Shown: piece after piece, positions 1,413-58,382 of the stretch | How the letters are laid out: each line of letters opens with the position of its first letter | Position numbering within the stretch: position 1 is the first letter of the stretch | From: a virus | IMG/VR virus record: IMGVR_UViG_3300025154_000068 | Span: 1 to 64,000 of that record | Strand: one strand, 5' to 3' | DNA length: 64,000 nt | Made by a program: the position numbers and the translations under genes | The notes under the pieces: generated by a model | What the model saw: only the letters and a program-made list of their open reading frames with translations | Told to the model about the DNA's origin: nothing | The model's database searches: none

Positions 1413-2573
1413 ATGGCACAAGCAGCACGACAACAGAGCATCAATGATTGGGCGGCGCAGGAGATAGCCGGGAGCTTCGCGGATGCGAACGAGGCTTCCA
1501 AGCGATTGAAGGCGGCCGCGGAGAATTGCCACCTGATCGGCGGGATGACCGTGTGCCCGATGCCCGAAGGCTACGAGGTACAGATCATTGTGGTGCCGAT
1601 CAATAAGGACCGCTGCTACGACATCAAGGGGCAGCCGAACGCCAAGGGCATCGGCAAGAGCACGCTCATGACGCTCTCGAACGCGGCAGGCGTCGAGTGG
1701 GTCGTGAGCCGCCGTATCGACGACGGCCGTGACCCGCGGTTCTGTCACTGGCACGTTGAGGGACGATACCCACTTATCGATGGCACCTACCGCATGATCG
1801 AGGGGGACCGCGACGTGGACCTCCGCGAGGGGGCAGACCAGATCGCCGGCAAGACCGCAGGAGAGATTGCGGCGCTGCGCCAGAACATGATGCGCAGCGC
1901 CATCACGAAGGCGAAGTTGCGGGCGCTTCGTGAAGGGTTTGGCGTCGACCAGGGGATGCCGATTCCCGAGCTCGACAAGCCCTTCGTGTTCGCAAAGGCG
2001 GTGTTCACCGGTCGGTCCAGCGACCCGAAAATCCGCCGCATGTTCGCCGCGGTCATCGCCCAGAAGCAACTCATGGCGTCGCAGGCGCTGTTCGGTGGAG
2101 CGCCCGCGCTCATGGCTCCGGCGCCTCTTGCCCAATTGCCCAGCGGGTTCAACATGCAGGAACCGCCTGGGATGGACCTTGACTACGACGATGATGGCGA
2201 GGTCATCGACATGCCCGCTGCGCCGCCTCCTGGTCCCGCGCCCGCGCCACCGACCCCGCCGCCGGCCAGGCAATCGCCTCCACCGCAACGCGGCTCCGCG
2301 CCAAGGCAGTCCGGAGGAGGCGTCTGGCCCTGGGCATCGAAGCGCGCGGGCGACCCCGAGAAGGGCGCGGCGCTGTCTTCGGTAAGCGATGAGGCGCTCG
2401 GTCGGCTCATCTCCTACTACGAGAAGAACCCAGGGGACGAGCGGTGGGCGGCGAAGAATGCCGCGCTCTCAGCCGAGGCCCAAGCCATCCTCGACTCGCG
2501 AAGCGGAGGCGGAAACGAGCCAGTGGGCGACGGCTTCGACGACCGCGACCCGGGCAACCCGGATGACTTCTGA
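1413..2573 (+). CDS. Phage recombination-module protein (possible ssDNA annealing protein) with Pro-rich linker and acidic tail
   Basis: GGGAG RBS; upstream of sbcCD; globular N-terminus, PAAPPPGPAP linker, acidic end (DDRDPGNPDDF). Confidence 0.5.
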   Translation: MAQAARQQSINDWAAQEIAGSFADANEASKRLKAAAENCHLIGGMTVCPMPEGYEVQIIVVPINKDRCYDIKGQPNAKGIGKSTLMTLSNAAGVEWVVSRRIDDGRDPRFCHWHVEGRYPLIDGTYRMIEGDRDVDLREGADQIAGKTAGEIAALRQNMMRSAITKAKLRALREGFGVDQGMPIPELDKPFVFAKAVFTGRSSDPKIRRMFAAVIAQKQLMASQALFGGAPALMAPAPLAQLPSGFNMQEPPGMDLDYDDDGEVIDMPAAPPPGPAPAPPTPPPARQSPPPQRGSAPRQSGGGVWPWASKRAGDPEKGAALSSVSDEALGRLISYYEKNPGDERWAAKNAALSAEAQAILDSRSGGGNEPVGDGFDDRDPGNPDDF

Positions 2574-2612
2574 GCAGGCCCGGGGCGAAAGCCGCCAAGA
2601 AAGGAGGCGCAC

Positions 2613-2876
2613 ATGTTTACGCACGCACTTGGATCCAAGGTTCGTGACCGAGTAACCGGGTACACCGGGATCGTCATCGGTCAGACGTCTTGGCTGTACG
2701 GATGCCGACGCTACACCGTCCAGTCGCAGGAGATGAAGGACGGCAAGCCCGTCGACGCCATGAGCTTCGACGAAGATGCCCTCGAGACAATCGAGGAATC
2801 GAAGGTTGTCAACCCAGTCAAGGACACGGGAGGACCGCAGCGCGAGCCTTCAAGGGGGCGCGAGGCAACACGGTAA
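2613..2876 (+). CDS. Small conserved phage protein
   Basis: AGGAGG RBS; KVRDRVTGYTGIV..WLYGCRRY pattern typical of phage small proteins. Confidence 0.75.
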   Translation: MFTHALGSKVRDRVTGYTGIVIGQTSWLYGCRRYTVQSQEMKDGKPVDAMSFDEDALETIEESKVVNPVKDTGGPQREPSRGREATR

Positions 2877-2969
2877 CCAACTGACCACCACCCGCATCGC
2901 CACGTAGCCCCAGCGGTTCGTGGCTTTTCGGGTGTCCCGTGTAGGACTTTGACAAGGAGGTGACGCATG

Positions 2970-3140
2970 CGCCGCCGGGGAAAGCCCGGGCCGATCTGTC
3001 GGTAGGTGTTTTGAAACAACAGATACCCGCGTGGTGAACGCGGGCCCGCACGGAAGCGAAAACTGTAACAATGATTCAAAGCCATTGGGTTACGACTCAT
3101 CTACGGGGAAATCTCTCGCGCTTCAGAGCCGTGCGGGATA
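2970..3140 (+). ncRNA. Candidate structured ncRNA (multi-stem)
   Basis: Stems ATCTGT/ACAGAT, CCCGCGT/ACGCGGG, and CCCGCACGG(3045)/CCGTGCGGG(3129) enclosing GAAGCG/CGCTTC and GTAAC/GTTAC. Confidence 0.45.
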
Positions 3141-3143
3141 GTT

Positions 3144-3217
3144 GCCCCTCAGCTCAGGTGAGCGACCCGGTGTGACGTCCCCGGGGATGGCGTGGTTCGG
3201 TTCCACGGAGGGGCGCC
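3144..3217 (+). tRNA. tRNA-like element (atypical or pseudo-tRNA; anticodon not assignable)
   Basis: Acceptor GCCCCTC/GAGGGGC, D arm GCTC-AGGT-GAGC, stem CCCGG/CCGGG with 10-nt loop, T arm CGTGG-TTCGGTT-CCACG. Confidence 0.6.
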
Positions 3218-3227
3218 GAGGTGAACG

Positions 3228-4382
3228 ATGCGAGTAGTGATAACAGCGGACACACACGCAGACGAAAGGCGTAAGTGGTCGGAGCATTGCCGCGTGCTCG
3301 ACTGGATGGCCGAAGACATGCGCACAAGGCAAGTCGACCTGGTCTGTCACGGAGGCGACATCTACGATGGAGTGTCCACGCCCACAGGGCGCAAGTACGT
3401 CGCCGACTGGATCCAGCGCGTGGCGGAGTTCGCGCCGATGTGCCTCGTTGCAGGCAACCATGATCGACACCTCGACGTCGAACACATTGCGCGCCTACGA
3501 ACCAAGTACCCCATCATCGCGGTCGAGCGTCCTGGCGTTCACGTCGTAGCTGGCGTCGCTGTCGCGATGCTTCCATGGCCTAGGATGGCCCATCTGCTCG
3601 CGGCCTTGGGCCGGAACGTGGGGCGCGAGGAAGCCGGGCAGGTGGCGATCGAGGCGCTCCGGTCCGTTCTGACAGGCCTTGGCGTGGAGCTCGCGCGTCA
3701 TGCCGGCCCGCGCATTCTTCTCGCCCACGCCATGGTCGACGGGTCGAAGACGGATAGCCGACAGCCAATCATGGGAGCTGACCTTACCGTGTCGATCGCG
3801 GATATGTCGCTCTGCAAGGCCGACATCATGGTCGCTGGGCACGTGCACGCTGAGCAGGAGATGGCGCACGCTGGAGCCGACCTCGTCATTCCCGGATGCC
3901 CCTACCACCGCACGTTCGGTGAGCCTGGCCCGACGAGCTACGTGGTTGCGCACTTCGCCCCCGACAGGACCGCAGAACCGCCGACATGGGAGCGAATCTC
4001 TACCCCCGCGACGAAGATGCTGTTGCTCGATGCCGAATGGGACACCGAGAGCCAGGCACTCCTGGGGCACCACCGGTTCGTCGACGTGGAAGGCTGCGAA
4101 GTTCGCCTTCGCTACACAGTACCGAGCGACCAGCGAGAAAGCTCCAAGCAACGCGCGAATGAGGCCGAGGAAGCCTTGAAATCGCGCGGCGCAGTGAGCG
4201 TCAAAGTAGATGAGGTCGTGCTGCCCAAGACCCACGCCCGGGTGCCAGAGGTGGCGGAAGCCAAGACCCTGGAGCAGAAGCTCCGAGCGCTGTGGAAGGC
4301 GCGCGACCCGGAGTTGGAAGAGGCCCGCAAGTCGAGGCTGCTCGGCATGGCGGATGAACTGGAGAGGGAGGCCGCGACGTGA
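3228..4382 (+). CDS. sbcD: SbcD/Mre11-like metallophosphoesterase nuclease
   Basis: DTH, GDIYD, GNHD, LLAH and GHVH motifs; overlaps the following SMC ATPase. Confidence 0.9.
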   Translation: MRVVITADTHADERRKWSEHCRVLDWMAEDMRTRQVDLVCHGGDIYDGVSTPTGRKYVADWIQRVAEFAPMCLVAGNHDRHLDVEHIARLRTKYPIIAVERPGVHVVAGVAVAMLPWPRMAHLLAALGRNVGREEAGQVAIEALRSVLTGLGVELARHAGPRILLAHAMVDGSKTDSRQPIMGADLTVSIADMSLCKADIMVAGHVHAEQEMAHAGADLVIPGCPYHRTFGEPGPTSYVVAHFAPDRTAEPPTWERISTPATKMLLLDAEWDTESQALLGHHRFVDVEGCEVRLRYTVPSDQRESSKQRANEAEEALKSRGAVSVKVDEVVLPKTHARVPEVAEAKTLEQKLRALWKARDPELEEARKSRLLGMADELEREAAT

Positions 4383-51125: not shown

Positions 51126-51473
51126 TCAGTAGATGGCGTCGGGGTCGGGCTCTTCTTCAGCCCAGGCCGCGTCTCTCGCGATGATCGCTACGGCATCCGC
51201 AGGGATGTCGGCGTCGGTCGGAGCGTATGTCGAGGTTTCGAGCTGGACTCCGACTCGCCGGGCATGCTGGTCGAGGAAGCGGTGCATGAGCCATGCGCTC
51301 AGCAGGTCGAGTGGGACATCGCCACCGGGCGCCATTCCGACGTCGACCGGAGAGCCGAGCTCCACGCCCGCCCTGACCCGCTCAGCGAGAGGAGTCCGGC
51401 CGGTCACGAGGACGGAACCCTTGTCCGTCCAGCGCACCGTCGTGCCGTCCTCGAACTCCCACTTGTGGATCAC
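51126..51473 (-). CDS. Small protein coupled to MuF (possible immunity/partner)
   Basis: GTGA overlap with MuF stop, GGAGG RBS. Confidence 0.6.
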   Translation of the reverse strand: MIHKWEFEDGTTVRWTDKGSVLVTGRTPLAERVRAGVELGSPVDVGMAPGGDVPLDLLSAWLMHRFLDQHARRVGVQLETSTYAPTDADIPADAVAIIARDAAWAEEEPDPDAIY

Positions 51474-53974
51474 GCGTAGCCTCCAAGACAACCGAGCACC
51501 CACCAGAAGTGCTCGCTGTCTTCACGGTAAGTCCAGAACGGGTCGGTCGCCACTTTTTCTGCTCCCATCGAGAGCAGTTCGGTCGCGTCGGCCTGGTAGA
51601 TCTTCCCGCAGTAGGCGGAGAAGAACTTGTCGGGCTTGGCAACTTCGCTCCACCCGTACGGGATCCCCGTGAGCGCGCTCAGCGGCTTGGCAACCTCGCC
51701 GGCGGTCCGCTTTCCGAGGAATGCAACTGCGGCCTTATGCACCGAAGCGTTGAGCGTCTCGATGGCGTGCCCCCATTCGTGAATCAGGGACCGCAGGTCG
51801 TTGGCGTTGACCCGAGGCGGGGACATCCGGATATCGCAGTAGGCCCGTCCGTTGACGAACCGGATCTGGGCCCGGCCGTCGAGCTTCTTGCTCATCATCG
51901 CGTCGTAGAACGCCTTGGCTCGATCGAGTCCAGGCATCTTGCGGGGCCGATTCGTGACCTTGGCTGTGCCCTTTGCTGAGTCGATGTTCGCGATGTGCCC
52001 AAGGATCGATGCGACTGCGTTGCCATCGTCGCCCTTGAGAAGCTCGCGCACGGACTTGTCCGGGTGGGTCTTGGCCGCTTCGACTACCGCTCTGACGCGA
52101 TCGACGAGAGCCCCGGTCATCGGGCCGTCGTACTTGTCGAGGGCGTGCTTCTTGGCGATTGCCCCGACTTGCTTCGCGGTCATGTCGAGGCCCCGTTCCT
52201 GGGCCGCTCTCCCCCACGCCATCGCACGCGCAGCGTCGCCGTACTTCGAGAATTCCTTCTCCCAGTGCTCGACGGTGTGCTCAGGCTTCGGCCCCGCGCC
52301 CGACTTGGGCTTCGGCCTGGCTTCCGCCTTCTCGGGCTTCGGTGTCCGCTGAACCGGGCGCTTGTCGAGTCGCTTGAGCCTCGCCTCCAGCTCCTTGCGA
52401 ATTTCCGGCGGATACTTCTTCGTGTCCGGCTTCCACTCTGCAGCATCCGGAGTCAGACCGAACCCATCTTGCGACGGTTCCGTCGAGGGAGTCTTGGTGA
52501 TGCCCTTGCGCTCGGCCTGTGACTTGCGGATCGAGCGAACTACACTGCGGCACCCAAAATGCCGAGGGGGGTAGTTCGTCTGCCACCAAGGGTGTTCGGC
52601 CGGAAGGATCGTTCCGTCGGCCTGCTCGCACATCAGCGTCACGCGATTGTCGAGGATCGCGTCGAATTGCCAGAAGGGCCGGACCTTCAGGAGCGCTGGC
52701 TCCGTCATCTGCTGGTGCCGACCTGCGTTGTACGCGAGTTGCACGTTCGTCCGGTAGATGGTATTACCTGTGTACAGACCGTTGATGGTGAAGTAGCCGT
52801 GCGCGGTAGAGAGGTTGAACACATGTCCGCGAAATGGAACGAAGCGACGCGAGGCAACGTGATCGAACTCTATATTTCTGGCCTCAGCATCAAGCGCGTT
52901 GCATTGGAGGTTGGCGCCTCCACTGGATGGGTAGCCTCCGTGATCTCCTCCGAGGGGCTCACACGATCGCTGCGCGATGCCAGAAGACTGCACTTCGCGC
53001 GAGGTGGCAGGCCCTCGCGAGAACGAACCGACCTGCCTAGAGAACAGATCGTTCAGCGATACGTCTCCGGCGAAAGCGCCAACAGTCTTTGCGGCGCGTT
53101 CGGTGTTCACCAGGATACCATCCGGCGCATCGTTGTGTCTACGGGACTCCACTGGCGCAGCGTCGCAGAAGCCGCAACGCTTCGTGACCACGATCAGATG
53201 GCCGCACGCGGCGCAGAATCTAGGAGTCGTAAGGTTGGCCGGTTCGAAGACGTGATCGCTGATTGGATCTCGCAGCGCGGCGAATTGCCCGAAGCTCAGG
53301 TTCCTTGCAGGACGCGCAACATCGACATCGCAATTCCCCCCGTCGCCGTGGAAGTCGTCACTGCGTCCGTGAATCCGTTCAACGTTGCCTACCTGCGCAA
53401 TCGCACCGAAGATCTGCGAGATGGTGGATGGTGGTGCTGTTACGTGATTATCTCCCAGCGTACCAAGGTGCTGTTGCCCACGGTAGCCGATCAGATCGTC
53501 GCCCTCGCGAAGTTGGCCCGCGGCAACCCATCCACGGCGCGTGAGCATTGGGTGATTCGGGGTTGCGGAGAACTTGCGGCCCGACGCGGTGACGACCTCG
53601 ACAAGGGCCCCCTCGAACCACCGTCGATGAGCTGCCCTTATCACCCCTCCGCTCACAAGGGTGTCCCCGGGTAGGCACTCCACCCGCCACGCCGGATTCA
53701 CGACGCTCCCAGCCCAGGCATCGAGGAGCTGCTGACCCACACGTTTCTTGAAGTCGTCCAGCGTCTCGCCGTTGGCAACGGCCCGGTCGAGAGCGAGCAG
53801 GACATCTCGAATCACGTCGGCTTGGGCCACGCCGGCCACGGTGAACGCCTTGCGCTGAGCCCGTTCGTCGAGCAGGTCCCAAACCTTCTTTCGGACCGGA
53901 GTTCGACCGAGCAGCCAAGACGCCGCGGGAGTGAACTCCTCGACGTCGGTGGGTGCGGCCCAGGGTGCGTTCAC
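51470..53974 (-). CDS. MuF/gp7 head morphogenesis protein with intein and C-terminal HEXXH extension
   Basis: AFTVAGV, RVE|TIYRTNVQLAYNAGR after splicing, PPRHFGCRS, LIHEWGH. Confidence 0.9.
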   Translation of the reverse strand: MNAPWAAPTDVEEFTPAASWLLGRTPVRKKVWDLLDERAQRKAFTVAGVAQADVIRDVLLALDRAVANGETLDDFKKRVGQQLLDAWAGSVVNPAWRVECLPGDTLVSGGVIRAAHRRWFEGALVEVVTASGRKFSATPNHPMLTRRGWVAAGQLREGDDLIGYRGQQHLGTLGDNHVTAPPSTISQIFGAIAQVGNVERIHGRSDDFHGDGGNCDVDVARPARNLSFGQFAALRDPISDHVFEPANLTTPRFCAACGHLIVVTKRCGFCDAAPVESRRHNDAPDGILVNTERAAKTVGAFAGDVSLNDLFSRQVGSFSRGPATSREVQSSGIAQRSCEPLGGDHGGYPSSGGANLQCNALDAEARNIEFDHVASRRFVPFRGHVFNLSTAHGYFTINGLYTGNTIYRTNVQLAYNAGRHQQMTEPALLKVRPFWQFDAILDNRVTLMCEQADGTILPAEHPWWQTNYPPRHFGCRSVVRSIRKSQAERKGITKTPSTEPSQDGFGLTPDAAEWKPDTKKYPPEIRKELEARLKRLDKRPVQRTPKPEKAEARPKPKSGAGPKPEHTVEHWEKEFSKYGDAARAMAWGRAAQERGLDMTAKQVGAIAKKHALDKYDGPMTGALVDRVRAVVEAAKTHPDKSVRELLKGDDGNAVASILGHIANIDSAKGTAKVTNRPRKMPGLDRAKAFYDAMMSKKLDGRAQIRFVNGRAYCDIRMSPPRVNANDLRSLIHEWGHAIETLNASVHKAAVAFLGKRTAGEVAKPLSALTGIPYGWSEVAKPDKFFSAYCGKIYQADATELLSMGAEKVATDPFWTYREDSEHFWWVLGCLGGYA
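52763..53677 (-). mobile_element. Intein (305 aa) in MuF
   Basis: CLPGDTLV, block B ATPNHPML, block F VFNLST, ends TGN before Thr+1; removal restores the MuF motif. Confidence 0.9.
52823..53674 (+). CDS. HTH + Vsr/DUF559-like endonuclease encoded antisense inside the MuF intein
   Basis: GAGAGG RBS; two HTH repeats (LYISGLSIKRVALEVGAS; RYVSGESANSLCGAFGVHQDTIRR); FE...EAQVP...NIDIAI..VAVEV...RTEDLRDGGW. Confidence 0.78.
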   Translation: MSAKWNEATRGNVIELYISGLSIKRVALEVGASTGWVASVISSEGLTRSLRDARRLHFARGGRPSRERTDLPREQIVQRYVSGESANSLCGAFGVHQDTIRRIVVSTGLHWRSVAEAATLRDHDQMAARGAESRSRKVGRFEDVIADWISQRGELPEAQVPCRTRNIDIAIPPVAVEVVTASVNPFNVAYLRNRTEDLRDGGWWCCYVIISQRTKVLLPTVADQIVALAKLARGNPSTAREHWVIRGCGELAARRGDDLDKGPLEPPSMSCPYHPSAHKGVPG

Positions 53975-55833
53975 AGGTCCTCGACGACAGCGACGCGTCC
54001 CGCGAGCTCCGCCAAGATGGTCGCCTTGTGGGCGAGTTGCTCGAATGCGGCGTTGTCCTTGACCTGCCCATAGTGCTCGGCGAGCTGCGTCCGAAGACGC
54101 TCCGGCCAATCGTCCCCGTCCTCGAGGTCGTCGATGAGCTCGAGCAGCTTCGCCACGTCGGGCTCGATGGCGCGGGCGGTCACCTGGGCAGCGTCGGTTG
54201 CGATGTCGTCAACGAACTGCTGGCCGTTGATGACGCCGGACGCCTTGGCTGGGTCGTCGCCAGAGGCGAGGGTGATAGAGCGCGCCGACAGCTTCGCCTC
54301 AATGATGGGTCCGACGATGCGTGGCACTTCGGCTTGCAGCACCTGGTGGAGCCTTCGCTCAGTTTCCGCCATAGCGTCAGCGACAACCGCGTCCCAGACG
54401 GGACGCCGACGGCTCGCCTTGACGTCTTCCGCATCGTCCTGTGGCTCTGCGTCGTCCCCTTCGTTCGACGCATCCTCGTCACCTCCGAACTGCGGCGGAA
54501 CCGGCGCTGGCTCCGACTCCTCCCACTCTGCCCCTTCCTCAAGAGGCATCCCGAACGTCCGTGCGTACTCGTTCTTGTCCACCGGAGCGCCCAACCCGAG
54601 CCACTTCTTCAGCGCGTCAGCGGCCTTGTCCCACGTGGTGGCGAGTGCTGCAGTGTCCGCCGGCGGTGTCGTGTCGCGCTTCGGCCAAGGGGCCTTGCGT
54701 CCATCGCCGAAGTTGAACGCCGCCCACCACCAGATGAGCTGCGACCGAATCGTCGTGGCGCTGGTCTCGTCGTCGGCGCGGATGATGGCCGCCGCCACCG
54801 CCGAGTGCACCTGCGCAGCGGCGTAGCTCCCGCCCTGAACCTCGGTGGAGAGGTTCTGTCCGAGGATGCGAATCGCGATGGCCGCGTTGGCCATGTTGAT
54901 CTGCGCCTGGAACGTCTCCCAGGTGTCGGCGACAGCTTCGACGAGCTTCAGATCGTAGCCTGGCGGCGTAACGATCGTTGTGTCCCGCCCGAGGTCGGAG
55001 ATGTCGCTCGCGAGCTCGTCGCGGTGCTCCCTGGTCGACCCCTCGTCGGTCGGGAATCCGACGAGCGTGCCCTGCCCGTGGCGCTCCGAATAGCGCCCCC
55101 AGTCGTCCCGGCCGTACTCCTTCAGGAGCCACCAGCGCGATACTGACCGCCACGCTCCTCGCGCCCACGGACGCTTGCTGCCGTACGGCGTGTACAGCAG
55201 CCACGTTCCGTCACCGGGGGTGACCTCGAGCTCGGAGCCGTCCTTCTGCCGAGCGAACCACTTGCGCTTGTCCTGGTCGTACCGAAGCGACGATGGGTGG
55301 ATGACGTCGAAGCCGGGAGTCCCGTCCTCCCGGTGGGGGATGAGTCGGATTCCGCTCGGCTGCTCGACGCGCTCCCACGACGCAATCCGACCGACGCCCA
55401 CACCGAGGATGATGCCCCACTCCATCCACTCGGAGAGGACGTCCTCGGGGACCATGTCCCACCAGTCCTCCTCGAGCTCCTCGAGCGGGGCGTTGGTATC
55501 CTGCTTCGGCGGCTGGAACTCGAGAGGCAGCCCCAGCAAGCCCCGGACGCGCACCTCGCGCAGACACCCGCTCACTCGGTCGTCGGCGAGAATCTCATCG
55601 CACAGCAGAGCGGCAAGCCGGAGGTTGCCGGTGTCCGCCATCGCCTCCGCACGCTTGATGAGCGTGGGCGACCACTCGATTGACGACGAACGGACGGACG
55701 ACTCGATGAACGGCGCAGGTTTCGGGATGCGCGGCACAACAGTCGCAGCGAGCGACACGGCACTGGCGATAGCGAGCACACGCCTCCCCACTTGCGTGAG
55801 AGTCGTCGATGCTCTGGTTCGCCAGTGGGTCAT
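53971..55833 (-). CDS. Portal protein (DUF935/Mu gp29-like)
   Basis: DWGRYSERHG, ILGQNLSTE..GGSYAAAQVH; follows terL. Confidence 0.85.
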   Translation of the reverse strand: MTHWRTRASTTLTQVGRRVLAIASAVSLAATVVPRIPKPAPFIESSVRSSSIEWSPTLIKRAEAMADTGNLRLAALLCDEILADDRVSGCLREVRVRGLLGLPLEFQPPKQDTNAPLEELEEDWWDMVPEDVLSEWMEWGIILGVGVGRIASWERVEQPSGIRLIPHREDGTPGFDVIHPSSLRYDQDKRKWFARQKDGSELEVTPGDGTWLLYTPYGSKRPWARGAWRSVSRWWLLKEYGRDDWGRYSERHGQGTLVGFPTDEGSTREHRDELASDISDLGRDTTIVTPPGYDLKLVEAVADTWETFQAQINMANAAIAIRILGQNLSTEVQGGSYAAAQVHSAVAAAIIRADDETSATTIRSQLIWWWAAFNFGDGRKAPWPKRDTTPPADTAALATTWDKAADALKKWLGLGAPVDKNEYARTFGMPLEEGAEWEESEPAPVPPQFGGDEDASNEGDDAEPQDDAEDVKASRRRPVWDAVVADAMAETERRLHQVLQAEVPRIVGPIIEAKLSARSITLASGDDPAKASGVINGQQFVDDIATDAAQVTARAIEPDVAKLLELIDDLEDGDDWPERLRTQLAEHYGQVKDNAAFEQLAHKATILAELAGRVAVVEDL

Positions 55834-55837
55834 TCGG

Positions 55838-57970
55838 TTACCGTCTGCTTCCGCCTCGCGCTGACCTGCTCGATGGTCGGCCCCGCCGGAGTCCGTCGTA
55901 GTCCTGGAGCTTCTTGTTCAGGTCGAGGGCAGTGATGCCCCACACGAGAGCGTCGACCCTGTCTGGCGATGTCTCATCGTTCGCTGGGTCCCATCCGCAC
56001 TGCTGGTCCTCGAGCTTCGGCAGCGTTCCCACGTGGTGGACTCTTCCCTTCTCGTAAAGGGTCGAGATCGGGTCTGCCCGGGTTGCCTTGCCCCGCGACG
56101 CGTGAACGGCCTTGAACGGCACACCCTGGCGCTCGGCTTGGACGTTGCGCTCGACAAGGTCTCCACCGTTGTTGACCTCGCCGATGATGTAGTCCGCTTC
56201 CCAGCGGTCGAAGGCCTCGAGAGCTCGCGCTGCCCATTGCGCTGGCGAGAAGACCCCGGAGAGGTCATCGAGAACGTAGGCGTGCCCGTCCTCGCCCAGG
56301 CCGACGACGATGATGCCGGTCTCGTTGCTCTTCGGGTTGGTCGATACCGCCGGGTCGATGGCGACGACCACCCGCCGCATGGGCGGGAGCGCGGGCGAGT
56401 ACGACCCATCGTCATTGACCCTGAGTCGAAGGTCATCAATCCGAGTGCGCTGCCAGAGCGCGTTCGGGTTGTCCTCGAGAATCTCGGCATCGATTTCCTG
56501 CCTGCCGAGCCTCGTCCCCTCGTACTCGGTGAGGATGGAGGCGAAGAACGGCTTAGCGAGGTTCGACCGATTCTCGTAGGTCGAGCCCTTCGTAAGGGCG
56601 ACATCCGCGCCTGCACGCTTGACGAGCTTCTTGATCGTCGCGATCGGCCTGGGCGTCGTCGTGACGATGCCTTGCGGATTCGTTCCGAGCCGGAACCCGA
56701 ACTGCAGCTGCGTCCACGCTTCCTGGAAGCGCCAGGCCGCAACTTCGTCCGCCCAAAACGTGTCGCAGTTGTGAACGAGAATCCCGTTGGCGAAGTACTC
56801 CGGCAGGCCCTCAACCGTGAGGTTGAACACCCGTCGAACGCCAACGTGCTCCCAGGTTGACGCAACGCTGACTGCAGTACCGTCCGCGCCTTGACACGAA
56901 CTCTCGCCCGCAGTGCTCGCACTTCCGGGTGCTCCTTCTGGCCTCGTCCGCGCGCTTCTGTTGGCACGCAGGGCACGCCGATGTGAAGCCGCCCCGCTTC
57001 CTGGGGAATGGCTTGCCGCAGTCCGAACAATCGATGTCGAACACCTCTCGTGACTCGACGTGCCTGTCGTAGTGCGTTCTGGGTGGCACGCACTCGAGGT
57101 TCTCGATCGCGTTGTTCGCCCGGTTGCCGTCCTTGTGATGGATGTGCCAACCAGGCGGGATCGGCCCGAGTTCCTGCTCCCAGATGACCCGGTGTTGGAT
57201 GTAGTGGCGACCGTTCGCGTAGCCGATGACGTATCCGTTCGCTCCAACGCGCCAACGAATACCCTCAAGCCCTTCGTCAGCTTGCCGAGTGGTACCCATT
57301 GTTCGCAAGATAAGACCGGATGATCGGCTGTGCCAGTGAGAGAAGCCCCGTTTGAGAAGCTGACGACGCCTACCTCGGCATCGTTCGAACCCGTTGCTAC
57401 AACCGGTCGAAGACCATGTCTCGTTACGACCAAATCGCCAACGGCAATGGCCTCGATCGGTCTGGGCCCCGCCTCGGTCTCGACAAGCGTTCCAGCGACG
57501 AAGCACTGCGGACCGCGCAGTCGATCGGGTCGGTCGGCCGACAGGATGGTGGCAACAGCCCCGTTGGGCCATGTCAGCCGCCGCTTCGATGGCTCGTAGT
57601 GCGGCTTGAACCACGGAGGCGAGATCGTCAGAAGTCCCGACTCGCCCTCGAGCATGACGTCGCGCGCATCCGCGGACGTCGCTGCGATCAGGGTGATTCG
57701 CTTGGACTCACCTGATTCAACCTTGCCTCGGATCCACTCGGCGCCAGTGCGGGTTTTCCCGAACCCGCGGCCCGCGAGGATGACCCAGATGACCCACGCC
57801 CACACGGGCGGGAGCTGCTTGTCGCGAGCCCAGAGACCTTGCCAGTCATACAGAAGCGTCCGAGCCGCTTCGTCCGGCAGCGTCGCTATCGCTTGCCGTA
57901 CCTGGCTCGGACTCATCTGGCGGAGCAAGCTTCGCAATCGCTTCTGCGAGCTGGCTCCTTGCATCATCAA
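55838..57970 (-). CDS. terL: Terminase large subunit with intein
   Basis: LAGRGFGKTRTGAEW, RLRGPQ|CDTFWADE, TTTPRP, VAIDPA, SPDRVDALVW; exact start uncertain. Confidence 0.95.
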   Translation of the reverse strand: MMMQGASSQKRLRSLLRQMSPSQVRQAIATLPDEAARTLLYDWQGLWARDKQLPPVWAWVIWVILAGRGFGKTRTGAEWIRGKVESGESKRITLIAATSADARDVMLEGESGLLTISPPWFKPHYEPSKRRLTWPNGAVATILSADRPDRLRGPQCFVAGTLVETEAGPRPIEAIAVGDLVVTRHGLRPVVATGSNDAEVGVVSFSNGASLTGTADHPVLSCEQWVPLGKLTKGLRVFVGALERTDTSSATRTVATTSNTGSSGSRNSGRSRLVGTSITRTATGRTTRSRTSSACHPERTTTGTSSHERCSTSIVRTAASHSPGSGAASHRRALRANRSARTRPEGAPGSASTAGESSCQGADGTAVSVASTWEHVGVRRVFNLTVEGLPEYFANGILVHNCDTFWADEVAAWRFQEAWTQLQFGFRLGTNPQGIVTTTPRPIATIKKLVKRAGADVALTKGSTYENRSNLAKPFFASILTEYEGTRLGRQEIDAEILEDNPNALWQRTRIDDLRLRVNDDGSYSPALPPMRRVVVAIDPAVSTNPKSNETGIIVVGLGEDGHAYVLDDLSGVFSPAQWAARALEAFDRWEADYIIGEVNNGGDLVERNVQAERQGVPFKAVHASRGKATRADPISTLYEKGRVHHVGTLPKLEDQQCGWDPANDETSPDRVDALVWGITALDLNKKLQDYDGLRRGRPSSRSARGGSRR
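56768..57505 (-). mobile_element. Intein (246 aa) in TerL
   Basis: CFVAGTLV, GTADHPV, VFNLTV..EYFANGILVHN then Cys+1; inserted just before Walker B. Confidence 0.92.
56811..57299 (-). CDS. HNH endonuclease with Zn ribbons in an alternative frame inside the TerL intein
   Basis: YIQHRVIWEQELGPIPPGWHIHHKDGNRANNAIENLECV; CSDC, CPAC, CEHC, YCSQRC. Confidence 0.88.
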   Translation of the reverse strand: MGTTRQADEGLEGIRWRVGANGYVIGYANGRHYIQHRVIWEQELGPIPPGWHIHHKDGNRANNAIENLECVPPRTHYDRHVESREVFDIDCSDCGKPFPRKRGGFTSACPACQQKRADEARRSTRKCEHCGREFVSRRGRYCSQRCVNLGARWRSTGVQPHG

Positions 57971-58382
57971 TCTCGATTGCTCCGCCGTCTGGACCGCTCA
58001 CCTCGGAGCGGGATGGCGCATCCGTGCCGAGCAGTCGAGCTCGCCGCTCCTCGATCCGGAGGGCTGTGTCGATGGCCCTCGGGTCTCCACGCCTCACCTT
58101 GCCGCGCAGTGCCCAGAGCATTCCGTCGAGGCGGATGAGCATCAGGTCCCGGACGTCCTCTGCGGACTCCTCCGTCTGCTCCCGAAGCTCAGCGAACTGC
58201 TTCTGGACAAGCTTCCAGGCCGCTTGCTTGGAGATGCCGAGCGCCTTGCCGATCGCGGGATAACTCGCGCCAGTGCGCTTCAAGTCGAGTGCCTTGGCGG
58301 CTCGGTCGATCGTGCGCACCTTCCGCGGCGTGACCTTGGTCGTCTTCGCCTTGGCCTTCGCCGTCTTCTTCTGCATCGTCAA
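57846..58382 (-). CDS. terS: Terminase small subunit
   Basis: HTH (GASYPAIGKALGIS), ERRARLLGTDAP, EVSGPDGGAI; overlaps terL. Confidence 0.8.
   Translation of the reverse strand: MTMQKKTAKAKAKTTKVTPRKVRTIDRAAKALDLKRTGASYPAIGKALGISKQAAWKLVQKQFAELREQTEESAEDVRDLMLIRLDGMLWALRGKVRRGDPRAIDTALRIEERRARLLGTDAPSRSEVSGPDGGAIEIDDARSQLAEAIAKLAPPDESEPGTASDSDAAGRSGSDASV

Follow-up and report, generated by a model that had tools for sequence, protein, structure and literature searches.

Putative homing nuclease genes nested outside the intein frame in two head genes of an uncultivated groundwater phage

Introduction

Can an intein that carries no endonuclease domain in its own reading frame be one part of a complete mobile element? 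The question is raised by the head module of an uncultivated groundwater phage, in which the genes for the terminase large subunit (TerL) and for a MuF-like minor head protein each contain an intein, and each intein contains a separate nuclease gene, in a shifted frame in the first case and on the opposite strand in the second. The stretch of DNA that was analysed, referred to here as the window, comprises 64,000 nucleotides, the initial 64 kb of a linear IMG/VR virus record of 83,034 bp (IMGVR_UViG_3300025154_000068) that is ~85% complete; the head module occupies its minus strand at 51470-57970. It is probable, in our judgement, that the two loci are independent composite homing elements, each combining a splicing-competent intein with a homing endonuclease that is encoded as a separate overlapping gene and not as an in-frame domain.

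The GC (guanine plus cytosine) content of the window is ~64%, so that long spurious open reading frames (ORFs) are common and ORF length alone says little here. What is far beyond chance is the domain matches, the periodicity of substitutions and the conservation of the arrangement in dozens of other phages. A sequence-only reading of this DNA had proposed two separate inteins in two head-module genes, with nucleases that lie outside the intein frame and that differ both in geometry and in fold. The splicing blocks and nested domain matches bear out each of these proposals, the second fold being assigned through fold matches with weak E-values.

The TerL Intein and Its Shifted-Frame HNH Gene

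The TerL precursor gene (55838-57970, minus strand; 710 codons including the intein) is recognisable by its matches to Terminase_6N (1.4e-22) and Terminase_6C (2.9e-12), between which sits a class 1 intein of 246 aa (57505-56768, minus strand; TerL residues 156-401). The intein has the expected residues at both ends and in between, namely an N-terminal Cys (CFVAGT), a TxxH block B (TADHPV), blocks F and G (VFNLTVEG..ILVHN) with a C-terminal His-Asn, and a +1 Cys. Its insertion site, RLRGPQ/CDTFWADE (here and below a slash marks the joint), lies immediately before Walker B. The insert scores 38.8 bits against Hint_2 (cut-off 28.4) and 26.7 bits against TIGR01443 intein_Cterm (cut-off 15.6), and its 25-28 bits against Intein_splicing fall under the cut-off of 35.8. 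Read in the TerL frame, the middle of the intein is rich in Ser, Thr and Arg and has no recognisable domain.

At an offset of +2 from TerL (the -1 frame), the same DNA encodes a nuclease. The nested gene (57299-56811, minus strand; 162 codons plus TGA) lies wholly within the intein DNA, and its product matches HNH_3 (E=4.7e-18; 65 bits, cut-off 24.8) and closes with the paired cysteines that typify zinc ribbons. The fold of HNH_3 nucleases is the His-Me finger, and the columns that are invariant in an alignment of nine relatives include His54, His55, Asp57, Asn62, Asn67, His76 and His80. The ATG of the nested gene spans the Gln-Trp codons of the intein just past block B. Its TGA (56811-56813) is formed from the Val-Glu codons of the conserved block F motif (N-L-T-V-E-G), and the intein block thus dictates where the nested gene ends. 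The C-terminal tail of the HNH protein, G-V/L-Q-P-x-x, is also kept in the window, in a relative designated L011 and in Tetrasphaera phage TJE1.

Base composition in the linker of the intein is likewise arranged by frame. GC there is 0.84 at TerL codon position 2, which is position 3 of the HNH codons, whereas in the TerL exteins, unlike the linker, GC is highest at TerL codon position 3. A 32-nt stretch of block G (56766-56797) is identical in another contig of three metagenome runs, with diverging flanks, which suggests that the same community contains a related intein in another gene or another phage.

The MuF Intein and Its Antisense Nuclease Gene

The precursor gene of the MuF-like minor head (head morphogenesis) protein is found at 51470-53974 on the minus strand (Phage_Mu_F 2.5e-15; phrog_220 3e-42). 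Its start is probably the GTG at 53974, which overlaps the TGA stop of the portal gene as GTGA (53971-53974) and is preceded by GAGGA a few bases upstream. Given this overlap and the GAGGA, the 879-aa ORF listed from 54109 is probably ~45 codons too long. The gene is interrupted at NPAWRVE/TIYRTN by an intein of 305 aa (53677-52763, minus strand), identified by its splicing blocks and a family profile: Cys1 (CLPGDT), block B TPNHPM, blocks F and G HVFNLST..LYTGN, and a +1 Thr. A profile of 20 members of the MuF-insert family matches the solved inteins KlbA (4.5e-8), RadA (6e-6) and RecA (1e-5).

On the plus strand, a gene of 283 codons plus TAG (52823-53674) runs through this intein in exact codon register with the intein frame, its stop being the antisense of the CTA codon for intein Leu2. 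A Shine-Dalgarno (SD)-like motif read from the sequence, GAGAGG (52809-52814, plus strand), lies 8 nt upstream of the antisense ATG and within the codons of block F. The product has two helix-turn-helix (HTH) domains (HTH_28, 2e-7; HTH_23, 1e-5; also HTH_58) followed by a C-terminal alpha/beta domain. Fold searches used an AF2 (AlphaFold2) model with a predicted local distance difference test score (pLDDT) of 80.7. When the whole protein was searched the HTH part dominated, and the nuclease matches come from the C-terminal domain alone, for which the six best fold matches include 3r3p (I-Bth0305I, prob 0.99), 1cw0 (Vsr, 0.96) and 3hrl (endonuclease-like, 0.90). The domain is accordingly modelled here as a putative Vsr-like nuclease with a fold of the PD-(D/E)xK type. 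Residues Glu142, Asp168, Glu177, Arg240 and His242 are invariant in the antisense protein and Glu241 is nearly so.

Selection on the Overlapping Frames

The host frames of both inserts are stop-free and both nuclease ORFs are complete between the splicing blocks. Within the window, the openness of the host frames was discarded as evidence because, at this GC, 22% and 13% of synonymous recodings are stop-free across the nested genes. The frame under selection is seen in comparisons with relatives that carry the same elements.

For TerL, the relatives L011 and L012 carry the same intein, and the HNH protein of the window is 65% identical to the L011 copy (tblastn). In the N-terminal splicing domain, the differences between window and L011 fall at TerL codon positions 1, 2 and 3 in the ratio 24/23/46. 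In the HNH core the corresponding counts are 15/46/27 (p=2e-4), with the peak at the position that is third in the HNH frame. Translated in the HNH frame, this core is 69% identical in amino acids between window and L011, against 40% when translated in the TerL frame.

The MuF element has counterparts in L038 and L039, in which the nuclease is 63% identical to that of the window. Differences between window and L038 by sense codon position are 5/3/13 over blocks A-B and 122/54/81 in the linker (p=1e-6), the linker maximum being at sense position 1, the third position of the antisense codons. Over the part of the MuF intein that is overlapped by the antisense gene, identity to L038 is 62% in the antisense frame and 48% in the sense frame.

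Purifying selection, in other words, acts on the host frame within the splicing blocks and changes over to the nuclease frame in the middle of the intein. The idea that splicing provides a safe harbour for overlapping genes fits these values: the host-frame middles behave as unconstrained, stop-free passengers in both elements.

Conservation of the Arrangements in Other Phages

Nesting of HNH_3 at +2 is also found in Tetrasphaera phage TJE1, Rhodobacteraceae phage LS06-2018-MD07 and Clostridium phage phiCDHM19. The last of these is informative on stop codons, since its nested region is only 31% GC: random synonymous recoding of the HNH gene introduces 10.5 stops on average into the TerL frame, and not one of 5000 trials was free of them, yet the real sequence has none. 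A survey of the 80 best HNH relatives in IMG/VR placed 64 at +2 within a continuous host ORF with intein blocks. In five others the host frame is interrupted, two have the HNH gene nested at +1, and about nine are free-standing or unresolved; an in-frame HNH occurs in none of the 80. Carriers span 31% to 68% GC and many different insertion sites in TerL.

Some of the exceptions have layouts of their own. The two relatives nested at +1 (L087 2430-2972 and L116 2393-2902) lie in host ORFs of 756 aa and 1050 aa, and the insert of L116 is a putative intein. In L058, L060, L061, L098 and L106, stops interrupt the host frame between the N and C blocks of the intein, which makes these candidate split-intein TerL genes. 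The TerL gene of Vibrio phage 1.245.O (L005, NC_055736.1; 3-3449) is 'fractured': the N-terminal part terminates with an N-intein and the stop codon at 2597, an HNH_3 homologue of 236 aa follows at 2483-3193 with the same +2 offset, and a separate ORF (3120-3449) supplies the C-intein blocks and the C-extein. This layout looks like a split-intein derivative of the overprinted one. The 1.245.O TerL also carries an in-frame LAGLIDADG intein further upstream.

The antisense arrangement is more uniform. The antisense nuclease has 35 full-length relatives in IMG/VR, every one of them in the same register within a MuF intein of 301-307 aa, at a site flanked by R(T/V)E and T, and the same arrangement occurs in phages of Gordonia, Vibrio, Pseudomonas and Cronobacter. 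In Gordonia phages Vivi2, Affeca, Fosterous and Angelicage, matches to the window's antisense protein lie on the strand opposite the MuF genes (E=8e-25 to 4e-21; ~29% identity). Both architectures are thus kept in the same relative frame in many unrelated phages. Gordonia phage Affeca carries a TerL intein with a frame-3 Endonuclease_7 ORF (L010 1386-1841) and a MuF intein with an antisense Vsr-like gene (L003 6001-6792), and the pairing of both kinds of element in the window is therefore not unique.

Standard annotation, as the sequence-only reading had anticipated, misses the nested genes: the records of TJE1, LS06-2018-MD07, phiCDHM19 and Affeca list the host gene only, and neither of the two nested Affeca ORFs is annotated in the deposited record.

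There is also a technical explanation, in which a canonical intein with an in-frame HNH domain would have been thrown out of frame by two compensating frameshift errors of sequencing or assembly. Nothing specific speaks for such an artefact beyond the fact that the contig is a metagenome assembly. The same sequence is present without indels in many independent DNA runs from groundwater and soil metagenomes, with no RNA run among those listed; an identical nested protein is on record on 13 contigs; and the same offset is found in isolate phage genomes and in 64 other contigs. The artefact is effectively refuted.

Expression of the Nested Genes

Among 46 distinct nested loci, 25 have an SD-like motif ahead of a candidate HNH-frame start, where the background rate is 23% (p=3e-6). 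In L011, MD07 and phiCDHM19, moreover, a stop in the same frame lies <=9 codons upstream of the SD-preceded HNH start, which favours internal initiation. These stops bear on another route of expression, programmed -1 ribosomal frameshifting out of the TerL/intein frame, by which the HNH protein would be made as a fusion. Such a route would suit the location of the nuclease in the -1 frame in nearly all relatives, and in the window an open -1 frame already begins well upstream of the intein. It is disfavoured by the upstream stops in the three relatives and by the enrichment of SD motifs before HNH starts, and no canonical slippery heptamer was seen by eye in the L011 stretch, the sole stretch inspected. 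Frameshifting is, on this evidence, very unlikely.

Patchy Distribution and Mobility

One relative, L013, is 91-94% identical to the window in nucleotide sequence over the whole module, and both inteins are missing from it to the base. The TerL exteins of the window are 96-98% identical to this intein-less allele, and the MuF C-extein is 96% identical to its L013 counterpart. Other relatives show further combinations: L011 and L012 have the TerL element only, and L014 and L015 have neither. Absence is exact to the codon, for the TerL intein in L013, L014 and L015 at RLRGPQ/CDxFWADE, and for the MuF intein in L013, L011 and L014 at NPAWRxE/TIxRTN. Patchy presence at conserved motifs (pre-Walker B in TerL; R-x-E/T-I-x-R-T-N in MuF) is the pattern that homing would produce. 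An intein-less allele was not seen in the contigs of four runs, in which no joint across either intein was present, at low depth and with fragmented contigs.

The same comparison bears on whether the nucleases might serve the phage and not the intein. HNH endonucleases beside terminase genes assist packaging in some cos phages (PMC3592412), and both elements of the window lie within the packaging and head module, so that domestication, as a terminase-associated packaging aid or as a means of excluding competitors, can be envisaged. The L013 phage, however, has the same head module without either element. The window's HNH protein is of the HNH_3 homing type, and its relatives occur at many TerL sites, always inside inteins. 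Exclusion of competitors does not conflict with homing and would go along with it. A domesticated function in place of homing is considered distinctly unlikely.

A Proposed Homing Pathway and Its Difficulties

If the two loci are composite homing elements, their life cycle may be pictured as follows. The TerL and MuF precursors would be translated straight through the junk linker, and splicing of the inteins would yield functional TerL and MuF. The HNH protein would be translated by internal initiation on the TerL mRNA, and the antisense nuclease from an opposite-strand transcript by way of the GAGAGG ribosome-binding site. In a mixed infection, each nuclease would cut alleles that lack the intein, close to the conserved insertion motif, and repair by recombination would then copy the intein and its nuclease gene in as one unit.

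Several observations weigh against this picture. Splicing, expression of the nucleases, cleavage and homing are all inferred. The MuF insert is the less typical of the two: its penultimate residue, here and family-wide, is Gly and not His (...YTGN), and as a single sequence it scores 19-20 bits on the Pfam and TIGR intein models, under their cut-offs. The fold matches of the antisense nuclease have weak E-values, from 7e-3 to 0.15, and a profile search found no Pfam nuclease family that matches the protein, MTES_1575 giving a weak match in 3 of 10 members. An antisense overlap that is in register partly couples the conservation of the two frames, and the selection signal for MuF is less clean than that for HNH. 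As to expression, there is no SD motif before the window's own HNH ATG, and a promoter scan found no sigma-70-like promoter upstream of either nested gene on the relevant strand; a weak site, CTGGCA-18-TATCTT, 7 nt before the HNH ATG, was spotted by eye and lies below the scan threshold. Finally, the empty sites in relatives fit precise loss of the inteins as well as they fit recent gain.

Some of these points would be expected if the nested ORFs were decaying relics, the inteins being now vertically inherited mini-inteins with nucleases that are unexpressed or inactive. The missing SD motif and promoter-like site in the window suit this explanation, and rapid decay of nested nucleases once homing stops is what Gosselin, Arsenault and Gogarten expect (bioRxiv 10.1101/2025.01.02.630785). 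Both ORFs are intact, however; the invariant residues of HNH and Asp168 and Glu177 of the antisense protein are conserved, and the third-position bias of substitutions lies in the nuclease frames. The layout is moreover kept in dozens of divergent phages, AT-rich ones included, and presence or absence varies among close relatives. Decay is therefore judged unlikely, and composite homing elements remain the preferred interpretation.

The Head Module

Both elements lie in a module whose order is phrog_645 ORF, TerL, Mu-type portal (53971-55833, minus strand), MuF-like minor head protein, a 125-aa ORF, head maturation protease and major head protein. The window's TerL is nearest to the TerLs of proteobacterial and cyanobacterial phages, and a megablast of this region against the phage collection gave no match. 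A profile scan of the window's own genome found only these two inteins and one HNH_3. Directly upstream of TerL, the ORF at 57846-58382 (minus strand) matches phrog_645 (label 'Rnase E', E=7e-28); it occupies the expected place of the small terminase subunit, and its 3' end overlaps the listed TerL start.

Relation to Known Systems

The sequence-only reading had offered the two loci as a candidate class of overprinted homing elements. This reading holds, but the class has precedent in the literature, in which antisense and frame-3 cases are already described. The preprint by Gosselin and colleagues reports 63 non-canonical cases among 784 actinophage inteins, with antisense LAGLIDADG, antisense VSR-like and frame-3 endonuclease VII-like nucleases, in genes for TerL, minor capsid protein, DNA polymerase and ThyX. 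It credits Gorbalenya 1998 with antisense LAGLIDADG nucleases and Dassa 2009 with VSR-like nucleases in split inteins. The loci do not form a new class; the general idea was published in 2025, and the window adds breadth, not a new principle.

The actinophage MuF inteins of that preprint agree with the MuF element of the window in host gene family, antisense geometry and codon register. Their nuclease, like that of the window, has a helical N-terminal part and a Vsr-like core, and the preprint links it to 3R3P (I-Bth0305I). Judged by sequence, the window's MuF element is a homologue of this antisense VSR-like type. It differs in its source, an uncultivated groundwater phage, and its homologues in 35 IMG/VR contigs and in phages of Vibrio, Pseudomonas and Cronobacter indicate that the antisense family is far from confined to actinophages. 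Antisense LAGLIDADG inteins (Synechocystis DnaX and Chloroflexus SpoVR-like, cited through the preprint) share the homing endonuclease ORF on the opposite strand but differ in nuclease family and host genes.

The frame-3 TerL inteins of actinophages, of which that of Affeca is an example, resemble the TerL element in host gene, in the position of the nuclease in the linker, in the +2 offset and in belonging to the His-Me finger superfamily. The Affeca nuclease, however, is Endonuclease_7 (PF02945), where that of the window is HNH_3 with a zinc ribbon (PF13392); the insertion site is another one, and BLASTP of the nested Affeca ORF against the window's HNH protein found no similarity (E=1.5).

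More distant parallels share single features. Fractured genes (Dassa et al. 2009, PMC2677866) have a split intein whose two parts are separated by a free-standing nuclease gene, VSR-like or other; the window likewise has a separate nuclease gene, but its host frame is continuous, its intein is predicted to splice in cis, and the nuclease gene is fully overprinted. In the ShiLan domain (PMC11855218), a hidden out-of-frame HNH lies in a stop-free insert of a phage methylase with a sporadic distribution, as in the window, but that insert has no splicing domain, whereas the insert in the window is a bona fide intein. The dCTP deaminase intein of cyanophage CL131 (PMC6293099) combines an intein with HNH_3, but there the nuclease is an in-frame domain.

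A description of the frame-3 HNH_3 type was not found in the literature searched, which included the text of the preprint and of which coverage is incomplete. The nuclease type of the window's TerL element appears to be unreported, and it turns out to be widespread. Frame-3 HNH_3 and zinc-ribbon nucleases in TerL inteins may constitute a fifth type of non-canonical intein that is so far undescribed: a family both large and old, in which the overprinted state is a stable form, not a rare transitional accident, and from which the fractured TerL genes are derived side branches. We hold this proposal to be evenly poised between right and wrong. Its reading of the overprinted state as stable draws on the absence of an in-frame nuclease among the 80 closest relatives, and the antisense MuF family appears to show the same fixity, with its one codon register and inteins of 301-307 aa.

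Implications

Inteins that seem to be mini-inteins without an endonuclease can be fully mobile, their nuclease being concealed on the opposite strand or in a different frame. It follows that active homing elements are undercounted in intein surveys and in phage annotation, where nested genes are mislabelled or missed. The two elements are also clean examples from nature of long overlapping genes: one frame need only stay open, since its linker is spliced away, while the other bears all the selection. That the relative frame is fixed in phages so divergent supports the 'splicing domain first, nuclease invaded later' account of intein origin. It further suggests that the overprinted state can persist for long, and the cases of split TerL link it to the origin of split inteins.

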